Part shown: one piece after another, positions 3,390-27,503 of the stretch | Numbering within the stretch: the stretch's first letter is position 1 | Layout of the letters: each line of letters starts with the position of its first letter | DNA from: a virus | Length of the DNA stretch: 64,000 bases | Direction: 5' to 3' (one strand) | Virus record (IMG/VR): IMGVR_UViG_3300009159_000035 | Notes under the pieces: model-generated | What the model was told of the DNA's origin: nothing | The model's database searches: none | Seen by the model: only the letters and a program-made list of their open reading frames with translations | Made by a program: the position numbers and the translations under genes

Positions 3390-3755
3390 ATGAGCAATTC
3401 TGTTTTAAACTACTCACAATTTCTTTTAGAAAAGAAAGCAATCAACCAAGAAATGGCAATGTTGCCTAAAGGTAAAGGTTCAAAATCTACTAAATCAGTA
3501 GGATCTGAAATGTCTGAACTTCCAAAAGGAAAAGGAAAAGGTATTAGCAAATCAGTAAAACCTGAAATGTCTACTCTTCCTAAAGGAAAAGGTAAAATGA
3601 TTGGAAAATCAGTAGATACGAAAGTTTCTAAATTACCTACAACTAAAGGTGCTTCACCTAAAAAATCAGTAGACTCTAAAATGTCTAAATTGATAATTAA
3701 AGGTAAAGCTATTAGTAAGAAAGTTGAGCCTAACATGGCTAAAATGCCTAAGTAA
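3390..3755 (+). CDS. Lys-rich repeat protein, probable DNA-binding internal head protein with capsid-targeting leader
   Basis: Leader VLNYSQFLLE, then 5-6 copies of a ~19-aa unit (EMSxLPKGKGKxISKSV); highly basic. Confidence 0.7.
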   Translation: MSNSVLNYSQFLLEKKAINQEMAMLPKGKGSKSTKSVGSEMSELPKGKGKGISKSVKPEMSTLPKGKGKMIGKSVDTKVSKLPTTKGASPKKSVDSKMSKLIIKGKAISKKVEPNMAKMPK

Positions 3756-3774
3756 TTAAAAAACCCATTCTGAA

Positions 3775-4080
3775 ATGTCAGATCAAAGAAAACACAAGGT
3801 CACGTCCTTTCAGTCGTTTGTTATTCAGGAAAATTCAATAAAGGATTTAGTTGGAAAAACTGATGACGAGCAATTGGACTTAGATGACGCTCGTAGTATT
3901 GGAAAAAAGATTTCCAAAATGAAAGGTGAAGATCGTAAGAAATATGTTGGCATTGTTAATTTTATGGGAGCATCTTGTAGAATTTACAATGAGATTTGGG
4001 CTAACTATAAACCAGTTGATCCATCAACCAAAAAATCAAACCGTGGAAAAGAATTCCAAGGTGAAAAAGAAGTAGGTTAA
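3775..4080 (+). CDS. Hypothetical protein, probable internal head protein
   Basis: 101-aa ORF in the late operon; N-terminal VTSFQSFVIQE resembles the targeting leader. Confidence 0.6.
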   Translation: MSDQRKHKVTSFQSFVIQENSIKDLVGKTDDEQLDLDDARSIGKKISKMKGEDRKKYVGIVNFMGASCRIYNEIWANYKPVDPSTKKSNRGKEFQGEKEVG

Positions 4081-4083
4081 TAA

Positions 4084-5172
4084 TTGAGTGCACAAGGAGT
4101 AATAGCTGAATCGGTTGCAAGTTTTAAAATAACTTGGGATAATCCAGGCAATGGTCAACAACCAAAGTGGGATCAAACTAAACAGTCAATTGAGTTAAAT
4201 CAAACTGACGTTTATCCTGACTTACAATATGTGTCAGCATTTGCAGCTCCAATCTATACCAAGTATACATCTGGATCACTTTTAAATGACTTAATAGTTG
4301 AGATCAATAAAGTTATTGACTCTAAATTAGCTAGTACCTCTGATAAAAAAGAGAAAGTTGATGAATTATCTTTGCCGGCAGGTCAACCTGCAGCTAAGCA
4401 GCTAGGAGCAGGTCAACCTAATCCTTTTTTAGATGACCCTGACGAAGAAGAGACAGATACTAAACCTGCACAAGAAAACGAACCTAATAATCAAATAATT
4501 CAAGGCAAACCTGAAGATGATTTAGTTAATCCCGAGTCATCTCAAGCAGCTGAGGTTATAGGTAATAAGCCTACACAAGAAAAAGAACCAGAGGTGACGA
4601 CAAATGATCAGGACCTGGTTATTAATAATACAACAACTACAACGACTACTGCACCACAAAAAGCAGAGTCATCGGCCTATACTGTTACGGTATATGGTGA
4701 TAAATTAAGATTTTTAGAAGGACAAGAGGGTCGAGGAGCTTATTCTTCAGGTATTAAGTTTTTATATAAGGTTTCAAATAACCTAACTAAACAAGTAGCT
4801 GGAGAACAAATTGATAACAGAACAAAGATTTGGGCAGAAGTTGCTCTAGCTGGACTATTATCAAAAGTAGTAAGATTTGAATTTGCGGATTTTGATGAAA
4901 TTGAATTTAAGTTTGGAGGAAATTTACTAGCTCAGGTATTACCTTCAATTGAATTAAGTTTTACACCAGATCCAAATTCAATTTACTCAAAAGAAAAACC
5001 TGAACTTGATATTGCAGATGTTATTAAAGCTACTAATATTACATTAGGAACTAAAACCACTTCTGAAATTATGTCTTTACAGAAACAAATACAGAAAGAA
5101 ATCGACTCACGTGAACCTGTTGAAAAACAAAAGCAGCCTGGTAAACAAAGTGATTCGGTTGATAATAAATAA
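4084..5172 (+). CDS. Hypothetical late protein with a low-complexity acidic/Pro/Thr central linker
   Basis: 362-aa ORF with a TTG start 3 nt after the previous stop; contains a T7 run; between head and tail-tube genes. Confidence 0.7.
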   Translation: MSAQGVIAESVASFKITWDNPGNGQQPKWDQTKQSIELNQTDVYPDLQYVSAFAAPIYTKYTSGSLLNDLIVEINKVIDSKLASTSDKKEKVDELSLPAGQPAAKQLGAGQPNPFLDDPDEEETDTKPAQENEPNNQIIQGKPEDDLVNPESSQAAEVIGNKPTQEKEPEVTTNDQDLVINNTTTTTTTAPQKAESSAYTVTVYGDKLRFLEGQEGRGAYSSGIKFLYKVSNNLTKQVAGEQIDNRTKIWAEVALAGLLSKVVRFEFADFDEIEFKFGGNLLAQVLPSIELSFTPDPNSIYSKEKPELDIADVIKATNITLGTKTTSEIMSLQKQIQKEIDSREPVEKQKQPGKQSDSVDNK

Positions 5173-5173
5173 C
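5163..5173 (+). promoter_or_regulatory. Late promoter TAATAAATAAC
   Basis: About 20 nt upstream of the tail tube ATG. Confidence 0.7.
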
Positions 5174-5192
5174 TAAAAAAATACGAGATAAA

Positions 5193-5780
5193 ATGGCAGG
5201 TCTACCACATTTTAAAAATTCAGCAGCAGGTCCAGGTAAATATGAACCCCTGTACCTTAATCAATTTGAGGTGATTATTACGGCACCACCATTGGTATCA
5301 GGTAAAATAGGTTTCAATAACAACTTAATGCTTGAGCACGTAACTAAAGTAACAAGTTTACCAGAATATTCAGGATCAGGATCAGGAGTAGTTACTCAAA
5401 ACTATAAATTCTCTCAAAGAACTTATGCTCCAGCTAAGCCAGCTCAAACATATCATCAGTTTAATATTGAGTTTGAGGTTAACTTAAATAACAATAATGA
5501 TATGTATATCTACAATGCTCTTAGAGCATGGGGAGATTTAATATATGATCCATTGACTGGTCGTCAAGGTCTAAAGACTGATTATGCAAATGCAAGTATT
5601 CAAGTAACAATGTTTAATAGAGCTGGTGTAATTTATAGAGATTTTGTATTTACCCCAGTATTTCTTGGTCCAACTAAAATGACTGAAACTGTTCTTGACT
5701 ATACTGCAGATAATTCAATTTATAAGTTAACTGCACAATTTACAGCAGACAAATATACAGACACTCGAATCGGTCAATAA
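5193..5780 (+). CDS. gp19: Tail tube protein (T4 gp19-like)
   Basis: 195 aa; EPLYLNQFEV, YNALRAWGDLIYDPLTGRQGLKTDY, LDY...LTAQFTAD fit the gp19 tube family. Confidence 0.85.
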   Translation: MAGLPHFKNSAAGPGKYEPLYLNQFEVIITAPPLVSGKIGFNNNLMLEHVTKVTSLPEYSGSGSGVVTQNYKFSQRTYAPAKPAQTYHQFNIEFEVNLNNNNDMYIYNALRAWGDLIYDPLTGRQGLKTDYANASIQVTMFNRAGVIYRDFVFTPVFLGPTKMTETVLDYTADNSIYKLTAQFTADKYTDTRIGQ

Positions 5781-5798
5781 AATAACAGTTATTATAAA

Positions 5799-6452
5799 AT
5801 GGACATGTTTAATGTAAAACGCCGAGATAATCCTTCAATGGATAAACATATGGATCTAAAGAAGCCAGGCTTCGGTGGACCAAATTCAAAGGAAGACTTT
5901 GATAAATCAAAAAGAAAATCACTTGAAGGATACCAACGAGTAGTTGACAGAAATGCCGATTTCGAAGGTGGAAATTTCAATCATAATTATGATCCAACGT
6001 GGAAAGCAGTAACCCGTGATTTAATTTCAAGAACTGCAAAGAAAAAACCATTTAATCCAATGTACGCAAAACAAACAATTGCAACAGTTAATGCTGTTGA
6101 AGAAGGTACTATCAAACGCTTTGAACAATTCGTTAATGAAAACGAAGGTTTTAATATGTTCGCTGAAGCCGAAGACGAAACTACTCCAGAAATGGAAGAA
6201 ACTACTCCAGAAATGGAAGAAGTTGAAGTAGATCAAGAACAAGTAGAAATGCTAATGGCAGATTTCGGAGATGCTCTTGAAGAAATGATTGATGAAATCG
6301 CTGAAAAAATGGAACTTGAAAAAGAAGAAGTTTGCGATATTTTATGTGCAGCTATTAAAAAGATGTGCGCTCCTGCTGAAGAAGAGGAAGAAGAAGACAA
6401 TCAAGACAATCAAGACAACGAAGACCCTTCTACTGAAGAAGACGAAAATTAA
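5799..6452 (+). CDS. Acidic prohead-core/internal protein
   Basis: Basic N-half; internal IKRFEQFVNE at 6111-6140; very acidic C-half with a 21-nt duplication (ETTPEME x2) and DNQ repeats. Confidence 0.65.
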   Translation: MDMFNVKRRDNPSMDKHMDLKKPGFGGPNSKEDFDKSKRKSLEGYQRVVDRNADFEGGNFNHNYDPTWKAVTRDLISRTAKKKPFNPMYAKQTIATVNAVEEGTIKRFEQFVNENEGFNMFAEAEDETTPEMEETTPEMEEVEVDQEQVEMLMADFGDALEEMIDEIAEKMELEKEEVCDILCAAIKKMCAPAEEEEEEDNQDNQDNEDPSTEEDEN

Positions 6453-6462
6453 GCCCAAATCA

Positions 6463-6822
6463 ATGAAATTGATTAAATTATTTGAACAATGGGTTTCCGA
6501 AGAAGGATTAGAACCACTAAAACTTGAAGTACCTGAGGTACCAAAAGAAGCGGTTGAAGATACGTATACTCTTGCGTTATCAACTAATGAATTTGGAGAT
6601 TTTGAAGTTACTGCAGTTATTGATTCAGAAGTTACAACTGACTCAACTGAGGCGTTTAAAGTAATTAGTTCAAATACTTCAAACATTGAAGTCGGAGCAA
6701 CGATTATGGTTTCATCAACCGTTGATAAAAATGATGATTCTGATATTGTTATAATAAATGACCAAAATCGCCCAGAAGATTCATTAATTTATTCAGGGAA
6801 AATTCAAATTACTAAATTGTAA
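6463..6822 (+). CDS. Hypothetical internal head protein (start corrected to ATG 6463)
   Basis: Leader MKLIKLFEQWVSEE. The track's start at 6289 overlaps the previous gene. Confidence 0.7.
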   Translation: MKLIKLFEQWVSEEGLEPLKLEVPEVPKEAVEDTYTLALSTNEFGDFEVTAVIDSEVTTDSTEAFKVISSNTSNIEVGATIMVSSTVDKNDDSDIVIINDQNRPEDSLIYSGKIQITKL

Positions 6823-6846
6823 ATTTTAAAAGTATATTAGATTAAG

Positions 6847-6871
6847 AAAGGGGCTTTATTGCCCCTTTTTT
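6847..6871. terminator. Terminator between convergent late (+) and nucleotide-metabolism (-) operons
   Basis: AAAGGGGC-tttatt-GCCCCTTTTTT. Confidence 0.8.
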
Positions 6872-7257
6872 ATTGTATCTACCCCAGTTAGGTCCCCAAT
6901 CTCTAAGTCTGAATCAATTAAGTGTGGAACAAAGTCAATTGTTGAGTATGCGGTATTTAAGAATTTAACAGTATTGTTAATATTACTTGCACTTAGGCCG
7001 GCGTTAACATAAATTATTCGATTGTATTTTCTGTTTCTTACGTTAATTGCCTTATCAATTAATTTCTTAATTTCATAATTAATTAAGAATGACTGTATTT
7101 TATTAGGAACTAGAATTTCCTGATCAAATTTTTCTTTAATGATTTTATTTACATTTAGTAAATAATCGCATTTTTGCTTTTTAGTAAAAATTTGAATGAA
7201 TTGTTTTTGATCCTTTACGAAAATTATTTCGAGAGTACGATCTACTGAATCTATCAT
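6856..7257 (-). CDS. Hypothetical protein, possibly a degenerate P-loop kinase fold
   Basis: 133 aa; ATGA overlap with the dCMP deaminase stop; beta/alpha pattern like small nucleotide kinases but no GxxxxGK. Confidence 0.55.
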   Translation of the reverse strand: MIDSVDRTLEIIFVKDQKQFIQIFTKKQKCDYLLNVNKIIKEKFDQEILVPNKIQSFLINYEIKKLIDKAINVRNRKYNRIIYVNAGLSASNINNTVKFLNTAYSTIDFVPHLIDSDLEIGDLTGVDTIKKGQ

Positions 7258-7709
7258 ATTAAATCATGGTCGATTTTTTTAACCTCAATTCCAGCACGAC
7301 GTAAAAAATCTAAGCCGTTTATATCTCGGTATTCTTCAAGATATACAACTCGTTTAATACCAGCCTGTAGAATTAATTTACTACAGTCAGTGCATGGGGA
7401 ATATGTAATATATAAGGTTGCACCATCACTACTTTGAGTAGATTTAGCGACTTTTGCTAATGCATTGGATTCGGCATGTAAAACATACCATTTAGTTTTA
7501 TATTCTTTAAAAGAACCATCTTCATTATTGATAGCCTCTTCACATTCATTTTCAAAGCCAGAAGGGGTTCCATTAAACCCATCTGATATGATTGTGTTAT
7601 TTTTTACAATTAATGCACCAACCTTTTTTCTAGTTGCATGAGATAACTCTGCCCAAACTTGAGCCATTTTAATGTATGTTATATCTATTTTATGTTGCTT
7701 TTGAGACAT
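7254..7709 (-). CDS. cd: dCMP deaminase
   Basis: KVGALIVK, GFNGTPSG, HAESNA and PCTDC zinc motifs. Confidence 0.95.
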   Translation of the reverse strand: MSQKQHKIDITYIKMAQVWAELSHATRKKVGALIVKNNTIISDGFNGTPSGFENECEEAINNEDGSFKEYKTKWYVLHAESNALAKVAKSTQSSDGATLYITYSPCTDCSKLILQAGIKRVVYLEEYRDINGLDFLRRAGIEVKKIDHDLI

Positions 7710-7711
7710 TT

Positions 7712-8596
7712 TTAGTTAGATTGAATAGTTTTATCATATATCCATTTAAAAATATCTTCTCCATCTTGGAATAGAATAATATCATTGGACTCTGACGTAA
7801 TTGAATTAAACAGCGTTTTAAAATCTGCGGTTTGGCTGCCATCTATTTCAATTAAGTTTGATACAATTGGCGGTAAGGTTATTGGTGTAAATGGTTCAGC
7901 TAGCATTCTTGAAGCAAGGTCATAGTGTCTATCATAGACATGATATGAATTTGCAACATGAGTATAGGTTCCCAATTCAAGATCTGGATAAAAAGGTTTT
8001 AGATGAGATAGTATTTGCATCTGTAATGAACAAAAGAAGGCTACGTCAGTTGCTGTACCCCATATTGCATCATTACTTCTCATAAATACACTCATGTATA
8101 ACTTATTTTGTCTGATATGTAAGTTTGCATACATTGTACAAACAAAATCTTTATTTGAAGGGTATTGATGTTTTGGTTTATTAAAGTGTAATACGGCTTG
8201 TCTAGTATTCTGGTCAGTTGCTAAACTTTGGATTGCCCATTGGTATTGGCTAATTGCATGCTCATTCTTTTCAGTAAATATCAAGTTTCCATATGCTGAG
8301 TTAACTGTTCCATCAATATTTTGAATTTCTTCCCAAAACTTTGCCCATTTTGAAATAAAGGCTACGTCACTACGACCTGCATAATACCACAAAAACTCAG
8401 CAGCAATATATTTTTGCTGAGAACCCCTAACTGAATTTTCATAAAGACATTGGGTTGGGTCTTCAATAACTAGCGCAACATTTAATAACTCTTTACTAGT
8501 AGTGCCTCGTGCATTATTAACAAGTCCATAAGTTAATAAAAACTTAATAGAATCACTATATGCATCAGCAAATGTTAAACCTTTAAATATTATCAT
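7712..8596 (-). CDS. Thymidylate-synthase-family enzyme of dCMP hydroxymethylase/methylase (T4 gp42-like) type
   Basis: EFLWY, DGTVNSAYG, TRQA, KDFVCT (catalytic Cys), MRSNDAIWGTATDV, SYHVYDRH; Asp at the pyrimidine-specificity position. Confidence 0.8.
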   Translation of the reverse strand: MIIFKGLTFADAYSDSIKFLLTYGLVNNARGTTSKELLNVALVIEDPTQCLYENSVRGSQQKYIAAEFLWYYAGRSDVAFISKWAKFWEEIQNIDGTVNSAYGNLIFTEKNEHAISQYQWAIQSLATDQNTRQAVLHFNKPKHQYPSNKDFVCTMYANLHIRQNKLYMSVFMRSNDAIWGTATDVAFFCSLQMQILSHLKPFYPDLELGTYTHVANSYHVYDRHYDLASRMLAEPFTPITLPPIVSNLIEIDGSQTADFKTLFNSITSESNDIILFQDGEDIFKWIYDKTIQSN

Positions 8597-8638
8597 ATAT
8601 TTTGTTAATTTTAATCCAACTCACCGTTAGATCTTATT

Positions 8639-8665
8639 AATATACTACGAAAATGAAAAAGGGTT
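8639..8665 (-). promoter_or_regulatory. Bipartite early/middle promoter
   Basis: AACCC-N15-GTATATT upstream of the TS-family gene. Confidence 0.65.
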
Positions 8666-8680
8666 AACGTGGCCTATATA

Positions 8681-10342
8681 TTAAATGATGGTTAGATCTG
8701 AGAAGTGATCAGTATTTTCAACTTGGATTTTAGTATCAAAGTATTCTTCCGGCAATGGGTCATGCGAAATTACAAAGACGGTCATATTATATTTCTTTGA
8801 AAAGGTTTTAAGTAGATCAACTACTCTAAATATTGAGTCAACGTCTAACGATGAAAATACTTCATCTAAGAAAAGAAGATTTACTTTATTATGTTTTAGT
8901 TTAATTAGTTCAAGAATACATAATAGCACAATTAAATTCATTTTCTTTTGCTCTCCAGAAGATAATGAGTCAGGTGAAACTTGCATACCTAAATGGGTAA
9001 TGATTGGATTAAATTCTAAATCAAACTCAAATGCAAATTTGAATTCAAGAACCTTGGCTGTTTTTAAAATCTTTTTATTTAATAATGGAATAATTTGACT
9101 CATTAGCATACGCTTCATACCATTATCAGATAAGATCATTTCCATTTCTTGAGAAACTTTTAATTTTTCAGTTTGACCAACTAAACTAGTACCAGCAGTA
9201 CTTAGTTCAGTCTCAATATTTTTTATTACTTCAACTAGGTGTTTATCTGATGTTTGTTTTCCTTGTTGAGATAACTGTTGAATTTCTCGTTTTACCGTAG
9301 AGACTTGAGCATCAATTTTATAGAATTTGTCCTTTGCTCTATTTTGGTCTGCTTCTATTAATGAAAAACCTGATTCATTACTCTTAATTATTTGTGAAAT
9401 ATTTGGAATAGTGGACTCTTGTGATTCCTTTAGTTTTAATAATTTGTCCTTTATTTGACTATGGATTTCATCAGTTAAGTCAGATAGACAATGTGGACAC
9501 TTATTTTTATTGTAAAGATCAAGTTTCTTTTGTATTTCTAAAATATTTGCTCTAATTGTAGTTAATTCATCACGTGATGCTCTAACCATTGTTTGTATTT
9601 CTGAAAGCTTTGTTGTAAAACTACCCGCTTCAACTCTGGCTGTCTCTTTTAAATCAACTAATTTTTTTAATTCAAGATTAAGCTCTTCAATTCTAGCTGT
9701 ATTAGTTGCCTGAATTTCATTTTTTAAATTTTCAAGTTGGTTAATTGATGATTCTAATAATCTTTGGTTACTTGCAATTGAAGATTCAAGTGGGGTAATT
9801 TCTCCTTTAACTCTTTTAGTATCTTCTTTAGATATTTTAGACATGTCATTAACTATATCTAGTCCAAAAATTTTATCAATTATTTGGCGCTTATCTGCTG
9901 GACTTAATTTAACAAAACTTTTAAAGTCATTTACTGATAAGCTGATTGTATTTGAAAATACATTAAATGGTAATTTAGTTAATTCCTCTTCAATAAAATC
10001 ATCAACTCTTCTTTTATCTGGTAAATTATATTCAGCACCATCAATTGAAAGCTTTGAGAAATTTGGCTCAAGACCTCTTTCTATATCAATAAGTCTACCA
10101 TTGCCGGTTGTAAATTTAATTTGAGTATAGGCATTCTTATTAATTCGGTTTGGAATTTCTTTAGTTTTACGAATTGCTGACTTTCCATAAATTGCAACAG
10201 TTAATGCATCAGAGATTGATGATTTGCCGCTGCCATTTTTACCCTGAACCAGGATTAATCTAGGATCATCTGTAAATTTAAAAGTCTGTAATTTATTGCC
10301 GTATGAGCAGATATTCCTAAAGGAAAATTCGTGTATCTTCAT
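8681..10342 (-). CDS. gp46: Recombination endonuclease ATPase subunit (gp46/SbcC/Rad50)
   Basis: Walker A GKNGSGKS, coiled coil with CPHC zinc hook, LSSGE signature, LFLDE, ISH. Confidence 0.95.
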   Translation of the reverse strand: MKIHEFSFRNICSYGNKLQTFKFTDDPRLILVQGKNGSGKSSISDALTVAIYGKSAIRKTKEIPNRINKNAYTQIKFTTGNGRLIDIERGLEPNFSKLSIDGAEYNLPDKRRVDDFIEEELTKLPFNVFSNTISLSVNDFKSFVKLSPADKRQIIDKIFGLDIVNDMSKISKEDTKRVKGEITPLESSIASNQRLLESSINQLENLKNEIQATNTARIEELNLELKKLVDLKETARVEAGSFTTKLSEIQTMVRASRDELTTIRANILEIQKKLDLYNKNKCPHCLSDLTDEIHSQIKDKLLKLKESQESTIPNISQIIKSNESGFSLIEADQNRAKDKFYKIDAQVSTVKREIQQLSQQGKQTSDKHLVEVIKNIETELSTAGTSLVGQTEKLKVSQEMEMILSDNGMKRMLMSQIIPLLNKKILKTAKVLEFKFAFEFDLEFNPIITHLGMQVSPDSLSSGEQKKMNLIVLLCILELIKLKHNKVNLLFLDEVFSSLDVDSIFRVVDLLKTFSKKYNMTVFVISHDPLPEEYFDTKIQVENTDHFSDLTII

Positions 10343-11941: not shown

Positions 11942-11942
11942 T

Positions 11943-12630: not shown

Positions 12631-14166
12631 TTATATCGAATTTAACAGATCATCATAATCAGCAGATGTTCGATGGGTTTGGATTGGTACTGGCATAGCT
12701 AGTGCAACATCCATAGGTATTAAATTTTGAGGTAGCGTTGTAGTATTAGTATGAGCAGTTTGATATTGAGTTCTCATTTGATTTTCAAGAGATTGTGTAT
12801 CATCGTCATCTGAATAAAATTCGCTAGCTGGATCGTATTCCTCTGTTAATTTAGCAAATTCATAACTCATTCTATACATTTTAAAACTTTCAGTATAGCC
12901 GCCATCCCTATTTGCAATTAACTTGATCTTCATACGCTTTTCCATAGGTCCACGGATTAATCCAAATAGTGAATCTACTGTATGTACTAGACCAAATGAT
13001 TCTGCAATATCTGACATGCTTAAGTCTTGATCATCAACTGCATCTCTTTTAATTTGAGTTGCTGTAATAATACACCATTCATTTCGGATTGCAACTGCTC
13101 TAAGTTCTTCAGAAATAACCTTAATTTTTTCATAAGTATTACCTTGCTCACGAAGAGGTCGCATTAAGTTAATATAATCAACTACAATTACCGTAAATTT
13201 AATTCCAGAATTTTGTTGAACTTTTAAAAAGTAATTTTCTACATCAATTGCTGAGGCAGTTCCAGTAGGAAATTCCTTAACTATTAATTGGCCAAGCTGA
13301 GGCATATCTAACTTGAGCTTTTGTATTTTACTAGTAACTTCAGATACTTGATTATTATCTAGCATTGAATCATAGTCCTTAAATGGAATACTTAATATGC
13401 TTGAACCAAGTCGCTTCATGTATTTACGATCAGATAATTCAAGAGTTCCGATTCCTACATGACAACCTGCCATAAATGCTCTAGCCGCAATATTTGAAAG
13501 AACCATTGATTTACCTACTTTAGGTCTTCCTTGAAAAACAACTAAGGTTTTTGGATTCCAACCGCCGCCTAATGTTTTATCAAAGAATGGAAAGCCGGTT
13601 GGATTTCCAATTTTTGAAAGTTGAACGTGATCAATTGAAGTAAAAAAGTTTAGACCAGATTCCGCGCTTGTAAATGAAACATTTAATTTGCTATTAAATT
13701 TTTCTCTAACATCATTTGTAATTAATTCAACATTCTCTGGATTAATATCAGTTGTCTTTAAATACGATAACACATCAATTACTGATGCATTTAAGTTTTT
13801 ATAGAAAATAAAAGCTTTTGTGTATTTAAAAAGAAACTCATAATTATAACTAGATAAGTCAACCTCAAATAGTGCATTAAATTTTTGTTCTGAAATATCT
13901 AGATTTGAAAGATTTGCAATTTGGCGTAATTCATTTCTGGTTGGAATTTTAGAATATTCAATAAAGAATTTTTTAGCTTCACGATATAATCTTTGTAGAG
14001 TATCATCATTGAAGTAATGAGCTTTAATTAAAGGAATAACTTCTCGTTTGTCTAATGATTCGAAGTTTTTAGGTTTAATGATTATATCATTATCATCTTC
14101 GGTTAGAACAAAGTTAAAAATTATTTTTTCGAGAAGCTCAATATTCTCTTTGAAATCTATCATCAT
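12631..14166 (-). CDS. gp41: Replicative DnaB-family helicase (gp41-like)
   Basis: GRPKVGKS, TLELS, IVKEFPT, VVDYINLM, TATQ, DIAESFG, ANRDG. Confidence 0.93.
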   Translation of the reverse strand: MMIDFKENIELLEKIIFNFVLTEDDNDIIIKPKNFESLDKREVIPLIKAHYFNDDTLQRLYREAKKFFIEYSKIPTRNELRQIANLSNLDISEQKFNALFEVDLSSYNYEFLFKYTKAFIFYKNLNASVIDVLSYLKTTDINPENVELITNDVREKFNSKLNVSFTSAESGLNFFTSIDHVQLSKIGNPTGFPFFDKTLGGGWNPKTLVVFQGRPKVGKSMVLSNIAARAFMAGCHVGIGTLELSDRKYMKRLGSSILSIPFKDYDSMLDNNQVSEVTSKIQKLKLDMPQLGQLIVKEFPTGTASAIDVENYFLKVQQNSGIKFTVIVVDYINLMRPLREQGNTYEKIKVISEELRAVAIRNEWCIITATQIKRDAVDDQDLSMSDIAESFGLVHTVDSLFGLIRGPMEKRMKIKLIANRDGGYTESFKMYRMSYEFAKLTEEYDPASEFYSDDDDTQSLENQMRTQYQTAHTNTTTLPQNLIPMDVALAMPVPIQTHRTSADYDDLLNSI

Positions 14167-14171: not shown

Positions 14172-14510
14172 TTAGTTCGAAATTATGTAAAATTTTAAAA
14201 ATTCAGATTGGTCAATTATTATAAATTCGCCTTTCTTAATTAGAATATTGTCTTCTATTAAGTCTTTCATTAATAGTTTTAATTTTTCTAAAAATTCAGC
14301 CGTTAATTTATCTCCAAACACATATTTTAAAGTTTTTGTTGAAAATTTAATATCTTCTGGGTCAAACTCTTTAGACTTGACTTGGGTAACTCTTACAATA
14401 TACGACACAATATCAAATATAAAGTCTTGCCTAGTTGGATAGCTAGGCAAGACAATATGCGACTCTAGTAAGTATTTAAGCGGAATATTTGGTTGTAATT
14501 TAAAGATCAT
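14172..14510 (-). CDS. Hypothetical protein (winged-helix-like C-terminus; sits at the T4 gp40 position)
   Basis: 112-aa ORF between uvsX and gp41, overlapping the uvsX stop. Confidence 0.6.
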   Translation of the reverse strand: MIFKLQPNIPLKYLLESHIVLPSYPTRQDFIFDIVSYIVRVTQVKSKEFDPEDIKFSTKTLKYVFGDKLTAEFLEKLKLLMKDLIEDNILIKKGEFIIIDQSEFLKFYIISN

Positions 14511-15690
14511 TGTCAGACTCAGTTAAATCTTCTAATTCATCTATTTCCATTTCATCTATTCCATCTTGAGTTTCAGGAAATTTAAACTTGGGTTTAATTG
14601 TGGTCTCATCTAGTTGAGTTAGCACTTCATGAGTAAATAATCTATCTGAGAAAAATTCTTTAACTGGAACTGCATCGCCATTGTGTTTGATAATATAGGT
14701 TTTACCAAGTTTTTTTGGTAGAAAATAGAAAGTCTCTCCAGCCACTTCAAATTTTGAACATAATTCTGATTCGTCTGGTTTTAGTTTAGAGAATTCCTTT
14801 TCAGTTAATTTATTACCTCTACCAACTCCACATGTTTCCCAACTAACATATTGTTCAAGGCCTACGAATTGATTCATACCTTTATGGAATGAAATATGGA
14901 ATTCAATATCAATTGGTCGAGCTAAACGATTCTTTTTAGTTTTAGAGCGAACAATAATTCCAGTAGTGGTTTTAGCTTCATCTCTAAGAGTTCCTTTACT
15001 TAACATCAAGATAATTGATGCAGAGAATTCTGGACCTCCACCGCCTGACATACCCTTTGGAGTATATTGATCCATTGAGGCATATGTGTGGTTTGTAAAA
15101 ATAAATGGAACTTTATAATTTGAAAGATCCAAAGTTAATGATTTGAATAGTGACCTCATTTCTTTTGCACGAAGTCCCATATCTGCAGCATTTTTACCTG
15201 CATCCATATCACGCTGACTTTTATCAGTATCAAGCATTCCTACTGAATCTACAAATAGTGCAATCTTAAGTCCTGGATTCTCCTTGATTGTGTCAATTAG
15301 ATCGTGGACATAAAATTTAACCTCACTAATAAGACCCATACGTAAATACTTTAATTTACTTAGATCTACTCCAAATTTAACATAGTCACTTGAATCAATT
15401 GCACCCTCGGTGTCAATATAAATTACCATGTAATCCATTTTTTGTAATTCACGAACTGCATTTAAACATAGGAAAGTTTTACCTGAGCCAGAGTCTCCAG
15501 CAATTCCAATACTTCGAGTATTAGGATAACCTCCAAATAACGAGCCTGACATTTGTGCATTTAGTAAGTAATTTCCAGTTGGAATGTACTCTTCAATATC
15601 AGAGAACCCTCTGATTTCAATTTTTGATTTGACTTTTTTCTCGAGCAAGTCGTTAAACTTGGCGAATGCGTCCATTGTTGATTTTGCCAT
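14500..15690 (-). CDS. uvsX: RecA-family recombinase (UvsX-like)
   Basis: GDSGSGKT, YIDTE, FVDSVG, NHTY, MSGGGG, KNR. Confidence 0.93.
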   Translation of the reverse strand: MAKSTMDAFAKFNDLLEKKVKSKIEIRGFSDIEEYIPTGNYLLNAQMSGSLFGGYPNTRSIGIAGDSGSGKTFLCLNAVRELQKMDYMVIYIDTEGAIDSSDYVKFGVDLSKLKYLRMGLISEVKFYVHDLIDTIKENPGLKIALFVDSVGMLDTDKSQRDMDAGKNAADMGLRAKEMRSLFKSLTLDLSNYKVPFIFTNHTYASMDQYTPKGMSGGGGPEFSASIILMLSKGTLRDEAKTTTGIIVRSKTKKNRLARPIDIEFHISFHKGMNQFVGLEQYVSWETCGVGRGNKLTEKEFSKLKPDESELCSKFEVAGETFYFLPKKLGKTYIIKHNGDAVPVKEFFSDRLFTHEVLTQLDETTIKPKFKFPETQDGIDEMEIDELEDLTESDNDL

Positions 15691-18797: not shown

Positions 18798-18828
18798 TAA
18801 TTATTGGTTTTATATAGTATTACTTGTT

Positions 18829-18855: not shown

Positions 18856-18875
18856 AACTTTGGATACAATATTGC

Positions 18876-18949
18876 TGATAAATAACTTTATCAACTCGTA
18901 GACCGTTTTTAAATTTATGAATTTGGGACGAATGTGATAAATAAATAAC
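18876..18949 (+). promoter_or_regulatory. Tandem late promoters for the tail sheath
   Basis: TGATAAATAAC at 18876-18886 and TGATAAATAAATAAC at 18935-18949. Confidence 0.7.
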
Positions 18950-18971
18950 TTCAAAATAATACGCAAAAGCG

Positions 18972-21900: not shown

Positions 21901-21998
21901 TCCCAAGAGGTATTCAAAAGTTCATCAACCGTATTACAATCACAAGAGCTGGAGGTCAATTGGCTTCTGCTTCTACTGGATTTACTCCTTCTTTCTAA
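18972..21998 (+). CDS. gp18: Contractile tail sheath protein (gp18-like) with a large insertion
   Basis: SSGVYTVEID, GSSKKGP, VPPAAY, VAGKRG, DRDYL, NIHVRE, YLFEFND, DDSNN...LENN; 1008 aa. Confidence 0.93.
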   Translation: MAEKLNLNRFKSSGVYTVEIDESSNLSLPLSTGRLVIGSSKKGPINAVVLVNDLRTLSAVYGDIDSKLEKNGNYFHRTIQVALRNGPVYALNLLPIADSDVAYFTTFNTEAASNNSTWSASSYQSSIADFYNTQKLWFADVDAVNKYKNLALGDSFPATGTVDRDANKLLSLVNLSKKNVTSWARIADTTGYDIKVKEYYKLLGDKVEVPDFLHPDDYVADYFVELSVVEGDWSDALRLSKDPIYQQYFNESGIILSKMNDFLSLKEVTVVNRTIGAIIPEFTDLTGAPASLDDLFNNKFSQSGVYCALDYKKIDMIDLANNPVFDSGSATESIESQRLDLVGYGFDEIDSSVYSVDSGNPDLSIDPVKLIDVLSYRKTAGYEYYFNIPTTSPDNYDILPGAAINPGEMYTVNPTGTNNNYIIATIGSPLYNAWANGFIKTGDTLLTGSTRYLSTDGVVKTVMNGLVKVSYIEFYAYSDLTYTNQVDAAAITSGSNKYLHIKSVTVTEFNFDFDLTDTDYFMSGFSYFSPNRLVFTLAPTLYGNTAKKEIANGNAAYDATKRSKIEAFIKTGQYVKASILTDSDGDPVIRERLLRIKTVYARKVSVTYLGDPTNTLEYTITVDSPLDINVTGINLTDSVLKVYKGIKNYVTDLKGFYVPAISLDEVGLYPNGTSARQDKILDYMFENTNIATTIADNETLNFRYIIDSFEGQVAPASKQQLAQLAANHGKALAICNAPSFAQYEKSIDPSFIDFNTNLVSTEYISTGGNLSSNPQFTFGFASGDKNGIAIASYAAYFMPNLVIFDNGRSKSVPPAAYIANTYMKKYTGGNTFSIVAGKRGIITEPEVTGIEYDLTNDDRDYLEPVGFNMIVRRRGFGVMIFSNNTGYQRVRSALNNIHVREALVTIERDIERILLNYLFEFNDTTTRLRVKTLVKNYLEAVQDARGIATFDVIFDDSNNGSEVLENNAGVIDIIVDFPRGIQKFINRITITRAGGQLASASTGFTPSF

Positions 21999-22018
21999 TT
22001 AAAAAGTTTAATACAAAT

Positions 22019-22046
22019 AAAAAGGACCTCAATGAGGTCCTTTTTT
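22019..22046. terminator. Bidirectional Rho-independent terminator
   Basis: AAAAAGGACCTC-aat-GAGGTCCTTTTTT between convergent genes. Confidence 0.9.
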
Positions 22047-22134
22047 GGGCCGACAGGATATGCCAGACATCCACCAATCGGTTTAGAGGTCCGATAACCT
22101 TATTTTAAAATAATAACCAAGCCGGCAGGTTAAT

Positions 22135-22422
22135 TTAATCTTTAATTAATTGTTTTTTTGCTTCGCATTTATCAATACGTGAATCAACGTAAGAGTGAAG
22201 CTGATCTATTCTTTGACCTGTTTGTTTATGCAAGTCATCGAATAAACGATGTGTATCTTGGAAGTTTTTATCCAATCTATTTTCTGCATGGCGCATGTGA
22301 TCTTCTATACTTTGTATTTGGTTTTGCTGTTTTAATACCTTCACAATACCCATAACAATAACGGTTAATATAATAACAGCTACTACAGAGAGTACTCCAA
22401 AAGTAAACGATAGTGTTTCCAT
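22135..22422 (-). CDS. Small membrane protein (one N-terminal TM helix plus coiled coil)
   Basis: Hydrophobic helix FTFGVLSVVAVIILTVIVMGIV followed by a heptad-like region. Confidence 0.75.
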   Translation of the reverse strand: METLSFTFGVLSVVAVIILTVIVMGIVKVLKQQNQIQSIEDHMRHAENRLDKNFQDTHRLFDDLHKQTGQRIDQLHSYVDSRIDKCEAKKQLIKD

Positions 22423-22494
22423 ATGTTTATTTTGTTTTTTTAGTTGCCGGCAAGGCTACCATTTAATCTTTAGTTGAGTCATTAGTCCAAGAAC

Positions 22495-23067
22495 TTAGTC
22501 TGCGATATCCATAATGTCTTCAAGAACTCTAATTGAGTCAGTTGAGTCATTATGTAAAATACCAGTTCCACCGGCATCAGTCCATTTATTTAGCTTAGTA
22601 TCAAAGTCATCAATTAAAATGTCAAATTTATCTCTGGCATATTTCCATTTGTCTTGATCTAACACTATTCTGGTTTTACTTGTGAAGTCTTCAGGTTTAG
22701 TAACCGGTTCTTCATCAATATGCAGGTGTAATTTAATCCATTTTGCTTTACCAGCTAAACATTCAGCACTTCTGCTTGGAGCAGATAGAATAATTGGATC
22801 GTATTGTTTTAAATAGTCCCATAATTCTCTACCATCTGGTGTCCATGGTAAATCTGCCCAAAAATCTTCGCCTAATTTATCTAGGATTGGCCAAATTGAA
22901 TTTTTGCCGTGCAGCTCCTCATATGCATGCGGAGAAAGTTTTTCAGGATTTTCTGAAATTTCCATAAAGCCTCGGTTAAAGTCTACTAAGACTCCGTCTA
23001 GGTCGCAAAAAATTGTATATTTTCCGCCTCTTTTTTCAAAGATGAATTGTTTAAATTTCTTAAGCAT
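22495..23067 (-). CDS. HAD-family 5'(3')-deoxyribonucleotidase (NT5C-like) with capsid-targeting-like leader
   Basis: IFCDLDGVLVDF, FWADLPW, ILSAP, GKAKW, ILIDD, GGTGILH. Start is ATG 23067 (MLKKFKQFIFE), overlapping the groES stop. Confidence 0.88.
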   Translation of the reverse strand: MLKKFKQFIFEKRGGKYTIFCDLDGVLVDFNRGFMEISENPEKLSPHAYEELHGKNSIWPILDKLGEDFWADLPWTPDGRELWDYLKQYDPIILSAPSRSAECLAGKAKWIKLHLHIDEEPVTKPEDFTSKTRIVLDQDKWKYARDKFDILIDDFDTKLNKWTDAGGTGILHNDSTDSIRVLEDIMDIAD

Positions 23068-23392
23068 TTTCTTTAAGTTCAAATTGAGTATCTTGATCTT
23101 TGTTAATTATGGCCAAAAGATCATTTGCCATTACTAAATGGTAACCAATACCGTCCCAGGTTACATCAAGTCCTGAATATCTTTGGTATAGAACTTTATC
23201 CCCTGCCTTAACTGGGCATTTTGAATTATTTGCAACAGAATGTCCAACTGAGATTACTTTTCCAGTATTTGGACGCTTGCGTGCATCAACTGATAAAATA
23301 ATACCAGTTTCAGTTTTTTTCTCTACTGTATCTGGTAAAATTAGAAGCCTTTCAAATAGTGGCATAAAGCCTTTTGTTATATCAACGCTCAT
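23060..23392 (-). CDS. groES: Co-chaperonin GroES
   Basis: PLFERLLI, mobile loop KTETGIIL, GKVISVG, VKAGDKVLY, DLLAII. Confidence 0.93.
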   Translation of the reverse strand: MSVDITKGFMPLFERLLILPDTVEKKTETGIILSVDARKRPNTGKVISVGHSVANNSKCPVKAGDKVLYQRYSGLDVTWDGIGYHLVMANDLLAIINKDQDTQFELKENA

Positions 23393-24504
23393 TAGTATTT
23401 ATAATTTTTTTTAAATTTGTAATAATTGAATTTACGACGAGCTGTTAAATCCACATTTGCTTTTATTGCATCTAATACATCAGTTGGAAAAAGCTTTGTA
23501 CTTAATCTTACTAATGTCTTATTGCGATGGATGTTATTCTCAATCGTCTGCCATTCACCAGGTTCCTTTATCTTTAGAGTATCACATGTTATTTCACGCA
23601 TTACATCAAGGAACCCAGAATCACCTAAATCGATTAATTCTTTAACGTCAGACCACTCATAGGATTCTCTAACATGCTCTATTATTTTAGATACTTTAGA
23701 AGCTGTCATTTTTGGATGAACTCTTGGAATATTATCAGAACTGTCTCCAGCTAAACACTTTGTTAAAATATCTAGGGTTGGATCAATTGTTAAGTGCTGA
23801 TAGTCTTTTTGAGTTAAGTCATTTATTATATTAATAACAGCTGAGTTATCAATTGACTCAATATCAAAATCAAATAAATTAACTTCTGCAGGAGTTTCAT
23901 CTTTACCAAAATCAGCAGTTGTATAAATCTTTTTATACTTTGTCATTTGTTTTGGCATAATTAAAATAACTTTGCGTTTATTACTTTCTAATAATTGAGT
24001 TAAGTCTTTATCAACTGACCAAATACAAATATCTTCTTTTAGATTTTCGCAAATGTAAGCAATTAGATCATCACCTTCTGCTCCAGGAACACGATTAACC
24101 ACAACTCCATATTCATCAGAGATTATATTAAGAATCTCAGTCTGGAAGTATTCAAAAAATAGATAAATTTTATCATCGTATTTTCGTTGACCTTTATAAT
24201 TAAAGTCTCCTTCTCCATGTGTTTCAAAATGTTCCTTAATATATTTTTTTCTCCAACTCTTAGAGTCAAATACAAAAAATACAGATTGGATATTTTCCTT
24301 AAATGGAGCAAGGATACTTCCAAAATAATTTGTTGAAAATGATTTAAACGAATCTTTACTACCCTGTTTAAGAATAAAGTTATCGTCGTTTAATAAATCA
24401 GCAACGTAATACTTTTCACCAATTCTCTTATCGTTTGCAAGAATGTTTTTAACAATACTTACTGCCACGTTTAAAAAAGCATTTCCGTCTATGATTAGAT
24501 TCAT
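23392..24504 (-). CDS. rnh: T4 RNase H-like 5'-3' exonuclease/flap endonuclease
   Basis: LIIDGN, FVFDSKSWRK, YKGQR, EGDDLIA, SVDKDLTQL, GDSSDNIP. Confidence 0.9.
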   Translation of the reverse strand: MNLIIDGNAFLNVAVSIVKNILANDKRIGEKYYVADLLNDDNFILKQGSKDSFKSFSTNYFGSILAPFKENIQSVFFVFDSKSWRKKYIKEHFETHGEGDFNYKGQRKYDDKIYLFFEYFQTEILNIISDEYGVVVNRVPGAEGDDLIAYICENLKEDICIWSVDKDLTQLLESNKRKVILIMPKQMTKYKKIYTTADFGKDETPAEVNLFDFDIESIDNSAVINIINDLTQKDYQHLTIDPTLDILTKCLAGDSSDNIPRVHPKMTASKVSKIIEHVRESYEWSDVKELIDLGDSGFLDVMREITCDTLKIKEPGEWQTIENNIHRNKTLVRLSTKLFPTDVLDAIKANVDLTARRKFNYYKFKKNYKY

Positions 24505-24505
24505 T

Positions 24506-24784
24506 TTAATTAGTGGGTTGTTTAGGAACTTGTAGTTTCTTTATTGCTTTTAAAATAAGTTCAGATTCTTCTAGTGTAAATATTCCTTTAGCTTGGCAGT
24601 GGTTAGCTGATGCTACTAAAATAAGAACTGCGTGTTCTGGAGTTAAATTTACCAAAAAGTTTTCGTAATCTTCAAGGTTAGTATAACTAATTGAAGAAAG
24701 TAGAGTAGCTATTGGAGCGGCCTCAGGTTGATTTGCGTCAACCTGAGGAGCTTCAACTACTGGTGGTGTTTTTGATTTTGCCAT
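24506..24784 (-). CDS. Hypothetical protein
   Basis: 92-aa ORF packed between gp32 and rnh. Confidence 0.65.
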   Translation of the reverse strand: MAKSKTPPVVEAPQVDANQPEAAPIATLLSSISYTNLEDYENFLVNLTPEHAVLILVASANHCQAKGIFTLEESELILKAIKKLQVPKQPTN

Positions 24785-24803
24785 TTTGTAGTTTAATTAT
24801 TTT

Positions 24804-25850
24804 TTATAAAGATGCAAATAAATCATCTAAGTCATCTGCTTTTGGAGCAGCTGCTTTAGCTGTAGGTTTAACGGCTGGTGCAGACATTTCAAAGTCATCG
24901 TCTAAACTAATTGATGAGCTTACATTTTTTACTGCTGGAGCTGGGGTAAATTCAATATCTTCGCCAAGTGGTGCTTGTGTTCTAGCTATTGGAGCAGATA
25001 ATTTAAAGTGTTTCTTCATTCTTTCATCTTTAGTATTTGCAACTAAATTGTCAATGATTTGTTTGTAAGGAATAATTGCTTTAATATAGTCAGCAACTTT
25101 TTCGTATTCAACATCAGTCCAATCCTTTAAGAAATATTGACTCATATCTGGCGAATTCTTTTTAAAGTATTCACTTACAAATTGCATAACCTTAGGTTCA
25201 GTAGATACTGGAATTTCTTTACCTTGAGTTGAGATAATTAATGGGCTAACTTCATTCATGAATTTACTAGCACTAAAATCTCTCCATGCTTTAGTCTTAC
25301 GCTTAATAACCAAAACAAAATCTTTACCAGTAGTAAGTGAAAATGGATTGATTTTTTGAGTAGTAACTAATTCCTGTTCAGGATTAATTTCCTGTTGGAT
25401 TAAGTTATCAATTGTATATCCGTAAGAATATATTTTAATTTTACCTTCCATTGTAGGAAATTGTGGATCCTTCTTGATATAAACACAAGAATAATAATTG
25501 TAATAACGATTAAAATACTTTTGAATCTCTTCAACAATTGAAGGCTCTTCGTTTTTCAATCGCTTTAATTCAAGATCAAGCGTCCAAAGAATTGATGATG
25601 CTCCTGTCGTTGATGGACAATCTACATACAACTTTTCGTTGGTTAAAGGGTTTATTAATTTAGCTGCGTATTTTTTATAGCGGCTCTTAGTTGGATCGGT
25701 TACCCAAGGGATAAAACGAATAACTGATTTGTAAATACCGTTTTGACCTTGGTCTGGACCGGGATTGTACACGTTGTCGTCGACTTTGCGACCAGCTGAT
25801 GATGATTTACCTGAGAAATCATCGAGATTAAGATTGAATAGATCTTCCAT
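24804..25850 (-). CDS. gp32: Single-stranded DNA-binding protein (gp32-like)
   Basis: SVIRFIP, CPST, KKDPQFPTMEGKIKIY, PFSLTTGKDFVL, acidic tail DDLDDLFASL. Confidence 0.9.
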   Translation of the reverse strand: MEDLFNLNLDDFSGKSSSAGRKVDDNVYNPGPDQGQNGIYKSVIRFIPWVTDPTKSRYKKYAAKLINPLTNEKLYVDCPSTTGASSILWTLDLELKRLKNEEPSIVEEIQKYFNRYYNYYSCVYIKKDPQFPTMEGKIKIYSYGYTIDNLIQQEINPEQELVTTQKINPFSLTTGKDFVLVIKRKTKAWRDFSASKFMNEVSPLIISTQGKEIPVSTEPKVMQFVSEYFKKNSPDMSQYFLKDWTDVEYEKVADYIKAIIPYKQIIDNLVANTKDERMKKHFKLSAPIARTQAPLGEDIEFTPAPAVKNVSSSISLDDDFEMSAPAVKPTAKAAAPKADDLDDLFASL

Positions 25851-25880
25851 ATTGTTTATAATGTTTAATAATTTAATAGA

Positions 25881-25907
25881 ATTGTACTAAATAAATGTGA
25901 AGAGTTT
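25881..25907 (-). promoter_or_regulatory. Bipartite early/middle promoter
   Basis: AAACT-N15-GTACAAT upstream of gp32. Confidence 0.72.
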
Positions 25908-25909
25908 TG

Positions 25910-25942
25910 AAAAAAAAAGGACGAGTTGTAAAACCCGTCCTT
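25910..25942 (-). terminator. Terminator after the Hc1-like gene
   Basis: On the - strand, AAGGACGGGTT-ttac-AACTCGTCCTT plus a T-tract. Confidence 0.85.
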
Positions 25943-25966
25943 AAATGTGAACTTTTAGTCTAAAAA

Positions 25967-26158
25967 TTAAGCTTTAGTATCAACTTTAGATTCTTGAACG
26001 TGAGTTCGGCCTTCTTGACAAAGTGCTTTAATGTCTTGAAGAACTTTACGAGTTCTAGTTCCAGCTGATTTATTTCCTTTTTCGTAGAATTTTCCAGCTT
26101 CTGCTTCTAATTGAGAAACTTGTTCCTTTAGCGATGTTAACCATGTAGGTGTTGTCAT
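25967..26158 (-). CDS. Histone H1-like protein (Hc1 family)
   Basis: KFYEKGNKSAGTRTRKVLQDIKALCQEGR matches the Hc1-family (Chlamydia/Bacteroidota) core GNKxAxxRxR. Has its own promoter and terminator. Confidence 0.85.
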   Translation of the reverse strand: MTTPTWLTSLKEQVSQLEAEAGKFYEKGNKSAGTRTRKVLQDIKALCQEGRTHVQESKVDTKA

Positions 26159-26178
26159 AATTTCAAATATTTTTTTAT

Positions 26179-26205
26179 CTTATATTTGAGAAATCCACCC
26201 GGTTT
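26179..26205 (-). promoter_or_regulatory. Bipartite early/middle promoter
   Basis: AAACC-N15-ATATAAG upstream of the Hc1-like gene. Confidence 0.62.
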
Positions 26206-26211
26206 TAAATA

Positions 26212-26937
26212 TTAGTGATATTTGTTTGAAAATTTAGCTGCTGGGTATACCTTTTTAGCAAAAGCTATCCAAGAAGTCATAACTTTGTCAGCTTCAAGTT
26301 GAGAAATTACCTCTGTCTCAATAAATGGCTGTAAATATTCTGTAAACTCCTGATCGAGCGGTACTCGTTTCTTTTTAGCTGATGCATACATACCTGCAAC
26401 CATTGCTGGAATTTCATCAGATAATAAAAAGTAACGATAATTATTTTGAGCATCAGCTCTTACTGATTTTCTGGTATTAATAATATGCCCACTTTTTTTA
26501 TTTATGCCTTTTTGCAAAAGGTGTTCAAGTTCATGTCGTATATTATCAATTAATTTATAATTTAATACTGGATAACATTGAGGTTCTGCCTCTGGGCTAA
26601 TATAAACAACTACTTCAATTTCAGGGTCAACTAACTCAGTTACCTTTGGAATAAATGAATTTGCATCTATTGCAAAACCTTTATTTTCAAAATTAATTAC
26701 CTCCCAAGGAAGTCCACTAAACTCTTTAGATTTAGCTGGCTCAAATTCTTCAACTCTAACTATTTTAATAGATAGCGTAAATTCAAGTGGATTACTATAT
26801 TCAAATTCTTTAAATATTTCTTTACCTATCTTAGAACCAGCAGTTTTCTTAACTACACTAAATAAATCTTTAGCAAAAACTGATGCAAGCGAATCGTATT
26901 TTGATTCAAATATAAATTGTGAAAACCTTTTTATCAT
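26212..26937 (-). CDS. Putative zincin (HExxH) metallopeptidase-like protein with capsid-targeting leader
   Basis: Leader MIKRFSQFIFE; IRHELEHLLQ with a downstream YFLLSDEIPA as candidate third ligand. Confidence 0.7.
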   Translation of the reverse strand: MIKRFSQFIFESKYDSLASVFAKDLFSVVKKTAGSKIGKEIFKEFEYSNPLEFTLSIKIVRVEEFEPAKSKEFSGLPWEVINFENKGFAIDANSFIPKVTELVDPEIEVVVYISPEAEPQCYPVLNYKLIDNIRHELEHLLQKGINKKSGHIINTRKSVRADAQNNYRYFLLSDEIPAMVAGMYASAKKKRVPLDQEFTEYLQPFIETEVISQLEADKVMTSWIAFAKKVYPAAKFSNKYH

Positions 26938-27503
26938 TTTTTAGGTTTAATAAAATTTACTTCTAATTGATTGGTTGATGGTGATAATTTAGCATCAAAC
27001 TCTATATCAATATCGCCTTTATCAATACCTAATTTTTTAGCAGACATTGAAGATTTTAATTTATCATAAACTTCTTTATCTAAAAATCCTTCACCTCTAA
27101 GTGCATCAACAATTTCAGCTTTCTTTGAATCAAATTTATTATCAGTTATCCACTTATCTAAATCAGCCTGTTTAAGTTGGTATTCTTTATATCTTTTAAC
27201 ACCGCCGCCTCCAGTATATTGAGAATGCCATTTTTTATCAGCATCAATTAACACTAGATTAATATCGCCAGTTTGACCGGCGGTTGGAGCTGGTACATTT
27301 GGGTCTGGCGGTAATTCAGCAGTTGCAAATGGATCAGTTTGAGTTGTATCGGTTGAAGGTGGAACCGTGGTGTCAGTTGTAACCGTGGTGTCAGTTGTAA
27401 CTGGAGTTTCAGTTGCTGCCGGTGGCTCAACTGGTGGCGGAGTAGAAACAAGTTCATCTGCTTCTAGTAATAACTTAAATTGGCTAAAGTCTAGGATTTG
27501 CAT
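26934..27503 (-). CDS. Hypothetical internal head protein with a Pro/Thr linker
   Basis: Leader MQILDFSQFKLLLE; 18-nt duplication TTDTTV x2; late promoter upstream. Confidence 0.7.
   Translation of the reverse strand: MQILDFSQFKLLLEADELVSTPPPVEPPAATETPVTTDTTVTTDTTVPPSTDTTQTDPFATAELPPDPNVPAPTAGQTGDINLVLIDADKKWHSQYTGGGGVKRYKEYQLKQADLDKWITDNKFDSKKAEIVDALRGEGFLDKEVYDKLKSSMSAKKLGIDKGDIDIEFDAKLSPSTNQLEVNFIKPKK

Follow-up and report, generated by a model that had tools for sequence, protein, structure and literature searches.

The capsid-targeting sequence (CTS) of bacteriophage T4 is MKTYQEFIAE (PMC8442874). It is reported to occur on three internal proteins, namely IPI, IPII and IPIII, and on Alt, from which the prohead protease gp21 removes it (Mullaney and Black 1996, as cited in PMC9026906 and PMC5694885). 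Suppressor experiments assigned targeting to residues 4 and 7 of the T4 CTS and processing to residues 8 and 10 (PMC9026906). Here we describe a 64,000-nucleotide (nt) stretch of virus DNA, hereafter called the window, which corresponds to bases 23005-87004 of the 87,004-base IMG/VR record IMGVR_UViG_3300009159_000035 (rated 32% complete by CheckV). Seven otherwise unrelated proteins encoded in this window carry a short peptide, the leader, that resembles the T4 CTS.

The system shares with T4 a leader of about 10-14 residues on unrelated proteins, in which two aromatic residues (Ar) three positions apart are followed by an aliphatic residue (phi), any residue (x) and Glu. It also shares a gp21-family protease, a gp23-family capsid protein and a small, very basic carrier encoded beside the head genes (gene 3390; plus-strand genes are named here by their first window position). 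In addition, the set of carriers varies between relatives, like that of the T4 internal proteins (PMC9026906). Unlike in T4, the protease is fused to the scaffold, at least 10 carriers are encoded in 87 kb and are mostly acidic, some carriers hold the motif internally or at the C-terminus, and the system is known from sequence alone. The giant phages phiKZ, 201phi2-1 and SPN3US (PMC5694885, PMC10052503) are comparable in their large size, many internal head proteins, T4-type protease and processing after Glu. However, their propeptides are mostly longer than 100 residues, have no short consensus and are cleaved at (S/A/G)-x-E (PMC5694885), whereas the leaders described here are short, have a consensus and, like the T4 CTS, show an aliphatic residue at P3. 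Phage P1 DarB likewise has an N-terminal signal, which suffices for capsid loading (PMC9024508); P1 differs in that its Dar proteins have no consensus (PMC9024508) and in that its capsid lineage is unrelated.

A CTS-like leader on otherwise unrelated proteins

All seven peptides named in the original prediction are present in the window, at the positions given there (Table 1). They conserve exactly the aromatic, aromatic, aliphatic and Glu residues that correspond to T4 residues 4, 7, 8 and 10, at T4 spacing. When a scoring matrix of 54 HAD-family leaders was applied to the T4 CTS, the latter scored 13.9 bits, a value equalled by just 5 of 26,951 proteome positions. The likeness to a T4-type capsid-targeting peptide is thus borne out by the key positions as well as by the score. 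We consider it probable, on the basis of these comparisons, that the leaders are T4-type capsid-targeting propeptides cut after Glu by the fused protease. The seven carriers are also probably packed into the virion, because their tag is nearly identical to the tag that loads proteins into the T4 head.

The pattern derived from T4 only, Ar-x-x-Ar-[LIVMF]-x-E, occurs five times within the first 15 residues of the 71 proteins, whereas the internal rate predicts 0.44 (P 1e-4). With one extra residue allowed before Glu, seven N-terminal matches were found against 0.69 expected (P 8e-6). The N-termini were also scanned with a leader matrix against shuffled controls. The matrix was trained on HAD-family leaders from other phages only, and the HAD protein of this genome was excluded from the scan, which avoids circularity. 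At a threshold of 10 bits, four N-terminal matches were obtained against 0.025 in 200 shuffles. The six highest scores belong to the internal motif of the 5799 protein (25.4 bits), the HExxH protein (23.3 bits), the 3390 protein (19.3 bits), the product of an upstream gene at contig position 2834 (18.5 bits), the C-terminal end of an upstream 520-amino-acid (aa) protein (13.0 bits) and the 6463 protein (10.6 bits).

The motif might be seen as a by-product of composition, since an AT-rich genome (G+C content 29-35%) could have N-termini rich in Lys, Phe, Ile and Glu, or of selection on mRNA near the translation start; bare Ar-x-x-Ar is indeed unenriched at N-termini (13 observed, 11.6 expected). 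However, the full motif is enriched 10- to 100-fold over internal positions and shuffles, by which a compositional artefact was ruled out. Moreover, the leaders use differing synonymous codons, and the aromatic residues and Glu are kept across more than 100 homologues whereas the next residues vary freely. An origin in composition or translation start is very improbable, and it is already contradicted by the enrichment, codon and conservation results.

At the DNA level, the 33-nt leader cores share about 50% identity. The conservation of the leaders resides in the peptide and not in the DNA, since synonymous sites differ; a DNA-level repeat or recombination cassette was ruled out by the same two observations. 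Meanwhile, the parts of the carriers after Glu are mutually unrelated, as BLASTP found no pair below E 0.03. The amino-acid sequences of the leaders are conserved in dozens to more than 100 relatives and, as judged from these alignments, the leaders are under selection across relatives. The comparative set comprised 80 related loci around the capsid gene and three protein searches. Related contigs reach 271 kb, and the lineage is a distant, uncultured one of about 270 kb. Its nearest named relatives are uncultured megaphages, Prevotella Lak phages and Tenacibaculum phages, with capsid-protein identity of 30-38%.

Upstream of the window, the same contig encodes four further carriers (contig positions 2834, 13240, 13677 and 14495). 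Three upstream leader proteins (L001:2834-3604, 13677-14150 and 14495-15022; positions prefixed L001 or L002 are contig coordinates, and other L numbers denote loci of relatives) also have in common a D-(L/F)-G-L-(A/S)-D motif, seen as KDLGLADE, FDLGLSDT and AELGLADN, which occurs in none of the seven window carriers. The 520-aa protein (L001:11675-13237) has ILGFADFIKEQ 14 residues before its C-terminus, and a Gly/Ser/Pro-rich stretch just upstream of this motif resembles the N-terminal region of the capsid protein (PGSIGSMGPI versus PGSISSIGAI). By analogy with what is reported for T4 Alt, the end of the 520-aa protein may be a C-terminal propeptide.

Table 1. Leader-bearing genes and associated features, in window positions.
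Feature	Position	Strand	Leader or motif (nt)	Remarks
Prohead protease-scaffold fusion	1..1557	+		C-terminal 518 of 662 residues; gene start 431 nt upstream of window (L002:4573-6561)
Scaffold repeats	427..888	+	phi-x-Y-x-x-Y-phi-(A/G)-E	about eleven units of 14 residues
Major capsid protein, gp23 family	1575..3272	+		Pfam Gp23 (PF07068) 3.3e-40, match begins at residue 106
ATAAATAA box	3349..3356	+		41 nt upstream of gene 3390 (late-type box)
Basic repeat protein, 121 aa	3390..3755	+	VLNYSQFLLE (3402-3431)	
101-aa protein	3775..4080	+	VTSFQSFVIQE (3799-3831)	conserved core NS(I/L)KDLVGK starts directly after Glu
ATAAATAA box	5165..5172	+		28 nt upstream of tail-tube gene; heads operon 5193-5799-6463
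217-aa protein	5799..6452	+	IKRFEQFVNE (6111-6140)	motif internal, residues 105-114
Acidic protein, 119 aa	6463..6822	+	IKLFEQWVSE (6472-6501)	start ATG 6463
HAD-superfamily 5'-nucleotidase-like protein, 191 aa	22495..23070	-	LKKFKQFIFE (23038-23067)	
HExxH protein, 241 aa	26212..26937	-	IKRFSQFIFE (26905-26934)	invariant HExxH and downstream Glu
189-aa protein	26934..27503	-	ILDFSQFKLLLE (27462-27497)	Pro/Thr-rich linker; C-terminal alpha/beta domain of about 110 aa
ATAAATAA box	27524..27531	-		just downstream of terminator-like hairpin; heads putative late cassette 27503 -> 26212 -> 25967
gp55-like late sigma factor	39200..39619	+		phrog_234 late sigma transcription factor 4.9e-17; Sigma70_r2 28 bits (cut-off 24)

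The carriers and their families

The nucleotidase-like protein carries CDLDGV, which contains the catalytic motif DxDG. Its start was placed at ATG 23070 and not at an upstream TTG because more than 100 homologues begin with MLKKF. The Pfam families NT5C (PF06941, 17.5 bits) and Hydrolase (PF00702, 21.9 bits) both match below their cut-offs and from residue 19-20, and tblastn alignments with annotated phage 5'-3' deoxyribonucleotidases (down to 6e-20) begin at residue 17-20. Among 116 distinct HAD homologues, F5, F8 and E11 are conserved as strongly as the DxDG catalytic core, and the linker after Glu is unconserved, varying in sequence and in length from about 5 to 40 residues. The leader is absent from the homologues of cultured phages aligned by tblastn, and the nucleotidase of Flavobacterium phage immuto has no canonical leader.

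Two carriers are encoded in a minus-strand cassette that is surrounded by replication genes and consists, in order, of a terminator-like hairpin, a ATAAATAA box, the gene of the 189-aa protein, the gene of the HExxH protein, a gene for a histone H1-like protein and a terminator. In the HExxH protein, H135, E136, H139 and E175 are invariant in 32 aligned sequences. Its AlphaFold2 model has a mean predicted local distance difference test score (pLDDT) of 93, with a value of 57 for residues 1-10, and the first helix begins at residue 12. Distant homologues begin a few residues ahead of this helix and have no leader. Searching the PDB with the model by Foldseek returned no hit at E 0.001 or better, and the rows obtained from VIA-align were only weak and tied (PprI, Z 4.5; oligopeptidase, Z 4.4). 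The label of protease given to this protein is putative: its HExxH motif is invariant, but no solved fold was matched. In phage immuto (NC_055915.1; L091 1898-5222), the HExxH homologue is the domain at the C-terminus of a protein of 907 aa, which is annotated as NadR-like and has a second HExxH further upstream. The NadR-like gene directly precedes the 5'-3' deoxyribonucleotidase gene, so that the two cargo candidates of the window are neighbours in a cultured phage. This arrangement hints that the HExxH protein could be linked to nucleotide or cofactor metabolism and not to proteolysis.

In the family of the 189-aa protein, 28 clusters keep IL-x-F-x-x-F-K-L-L-L-E-A, after which comes a variable linker, and the leader is the best-conserved segment. 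Residues 1-78 are disordered in the model and residues 80-189 form a compact domain (pLDDT about 87), for which no fold match was found in the PDB. The third gene of the cassette (25967-26158, minus strand) has no leader and encodes the histone H1-like protein of 63 aa, which passes the cut-off of Pfam Hc1 (5.8e-18).

The other four carriers are encoded among the head and tail genes. The mature part of the 3390 protein has an isoelectric point of 10.4 and contains 26% Lys and Arg, and its leader is kept in the orthologues of 52 related loci. The 3390 protein is a candidate analogue of the T4 internal proteins. Its label as DNA-condensing is a guess from its basic, repetitive composition; the only family-level DNA-condensing candidate near the leader genes is the Hc1 protein of the minus-strand cassette. 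In the 3775 family, phi-x-E always directly precedes NS(I/L)KDLVGK, even in members with 50-100 extra N-terminal residues. In the 5799 protein, the motif stands after a conserved N-terminal domain and before an acidic tail of poor conservation, and it is kept in 33 distinct orthologues. In the 6463 family the leader is the best-conserved segment. We also considered a programmed frameshift from 5799-6452 into a frame opening at 6289; this idea was dropped since the open frame is another reading of a purine-rich acidic repeat and the orthologues begin at the ATG corresponding to 6463.

Between gene 3775 and the tail-tube gene lies a gene for a 362-aa protein (window 4084-5172, plus strand). It has a TTG start and reads LSAQGVIAE-S, and its orthologues start with MVGDGVIAES. 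The 4084 protein thus has a short N-terminal phi-x-E site but no aromatic pair, so that cleavage may occur here although the targeting part is lacking. PHROGs and Pfam searches gave no match for the 3390, 3775, 4084, 5799, 6463 and 189-aa (26934) proteins. In some relatives (L028, L042, L044 and L082), extra leader-bearing genes are inserted between the capsid and tail-tube genes, and therefore this interval appears to be a variable cargo locus. A further relative (L077) has additional leader-bearing open reading frames.

According to domain matches and structure models, the leader is a portable add-on located outside folded or Pfam domains, and it is left unpacked in the models. This unpacked state and the conserved phi-x-E where the conserved core begins would indirectly favour the predicted cleavage. 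The combination of a conserved leader and a variable linker in the families of the HAD, 6463 and 189-aa proteins fits such a tag.

Head assembly machinery and predicted late transcription

The protease part of the fusion was recognized as Peptidase_S77 (PF03420, 35.5 bits, cut-off 27), which forms the N-terminal part, and as phrog_207 head maturation protease (5e-33); the best solved relative is T4 gp21 (5JBL). Tenacibaculum phage PTm1 (L092 42854-44548) likewise fuses its prohead protease to a scaffold, in which the repeats are Trp-based (E-x-W-I...F-T-K-E-L-S-E-G-I-E-K-W-I). The scaffold repeats of the window are retained, as 8-12 units, in relatives down to 41% identity. They have the Ar-x-x-Ar-phi-x-E skeleton of the leaders, yet they score at most 3.6 bits on the leader matrix, because they have Tyr where the leaders have Phe. 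The capsid protein is extended at its N-terminus by about 100 residues, in which an alignment of 48 relatives shows phi-x-E to be conserved near residues 23 and 53. The phi-x-E in this extension and in every scaffold repeat fits the same putative protease rule as the leaders.

The recurrence of the leader skeleton about 11 times in the scaffold also suits another explanation, in which core proteins bear the peptide only as an extended motif for cleavage or assembly. The carriers would then be prohead-core components that are first built in and later degraded or expelled, like T4 gp22, gp67 and gp68, instead of being retained and injected. The location of genes 3390, 3775, 5799 and 6463 among head and tail genes would be expected in that case, as would the internal motif beside an acidic tail in the 5799 protein, and T4 core proteins are indeed cut to fragments that exit the head (PMC5694885). 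However, the carriers include well-folded enzyme-like domains (HAD and HExxH) that have one site only, right at their beginning, which in T4 is the arrangement of retained proteins. We regard a core-protein role of the carriers as unlikely. That the cargo is retained and injected as a toolkit, as originally proposed, and is not transient core material is less certain than the nature of the leaders.

The ATAAATAA boxes precede the protease-scaffold, tail-tube, sheath and other large genes. Their number in the window is at chance level (19 versus 18.4 expected). Of the 27 copies in the contig, however, 15 fall within the 8-60 nt upstream of a same-strand start, where 0.58 would be expected. The claim that most leaders lie behind late boxes holds in part: such boxes stand directly before gene 3390 and before the gene of the 189-aa protein, and genes 3775, 5799, 6463 and 26212 follow in the same operons, but the nucleotidase gene does not. 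In total, six of the seven carriers are in operons headed by positioned ATAAATAA boxes. The box before the 189-aa protein gene is conserved in distant relatives, where it is read through as I-N-N when the start is called too far upstream. A gp55-like late sigma factor is encoded in the window (Table 1).

Several other observations were made on the record. The motif TTAGTATAWT, of early-promoter type, is weakly over-represented (56 versus 37.6, with one mismatch allowed). An Amidoligase_2 domain (30.1 bits, cut-off 22) occurs in a 450-aa protein that is encoded at window positions 61229-62581 (plus strand), behind a AATAAATAG box. A perfect 27-bp tandem repeat of 4.5 copies occupies window positions 63880-64000 and is interrupted by the contig end.

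Predicted route of the cargo and its implications

If the leaders act as capsid-targeting propeptides, each carrier would be made with the amphipathic leader phi-(K)-x-Ar-x-x-Ar-phi-x(1-3)-E, a short part of the protein that would dock it onto the scaffolding core during assembly of the surrounding gp23-type shell. The gp21-family protease, which is fused to the scaffold here, would cleave after Glu, the mature protein would remain in the head with the DNA, and the cargo could finally be delivered into the next host.

Several points weigh against this interpretation. Firstly, the motif is not uniformly placed at the N-terminus: it is internal in the 5799 protein and in some 3775 orthologues, and C-terminal in the upstream 520-aa protein. 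Secondly, a basic character like that of the T4 internal proteins is found in a single carrier, most of the others being acidic. Thirdly, docking of the leaders on the scaffold repeats is conjecture, because the repeats score poorly on the leader matrix. In addition, no cultured relative with leaders was found: in a 50-kb head region of phage PTm1, none of the 62 annotated proteins has an Ar-x-x-Ar-phi-x-E leader. Finally, the nucleotidase gene, the start of which overlaps the GroES gene at its end, belongs to an SSB-exonuclease-GroES operon that has no late box, and the nucleotide-metabolism role expected of the enzyme is cytoplasmic.

The overlap with the GroES gene could also suggest that the peptide is a recognition tag for another machine, such as the phage GroEL/GroES or a modifying enzyme. 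The window encodes GroEL (35943-37523, identified by its N-terminal sequence) as well as GroES, and in T4 the N-terminal end of gp23 reportedly guides proteins to GroEL (Snyder and Tarkowski 2005, as cited in PMC10052503). However, the leaders match the T4 CTS position by position, every leader ends in a protease-type phi-x-E site, and no radical-SAM gene was found in the 87-kb record, which is rated as incomplete. A tag for such a machine is quite improbable.

Capsid targeting followed by cleavage after Glu is the reading that we prefer. A much broader proposal, which we put forward tentatively and hold to be doubtful, is that the T4 capsid-targeting code is ancient and readable across all phages of the gp21/gp23 type, including uncultured jumbo phages, that in this lineage the leader docks by joining the similar 14-residue scaffold repeats, and that the nucleotidase and the HExxH hydrolase are first-minute effectors delivered with the DNA. 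If the code were ancient, the set of injected proteins would be predictable from the genome alone.

Should the leaders function like the T4 CTS, proteins that are carried in the head and probably delivered with the DNA would be flagged by a motif of ten residues. The candidates here would be the basic repeat protein, the nucleotidase, the HExxH protein and four proteins without assigned function. The targeting and processing code of T4 would then have persisted between phages with capsid proteins that show relatedness at the family level only. Meanwhile, the leaders supply natural variants for tests of phage-based protein packaging. If this reading is true, the question of what uncultured phages inject would become answerable from the genome.

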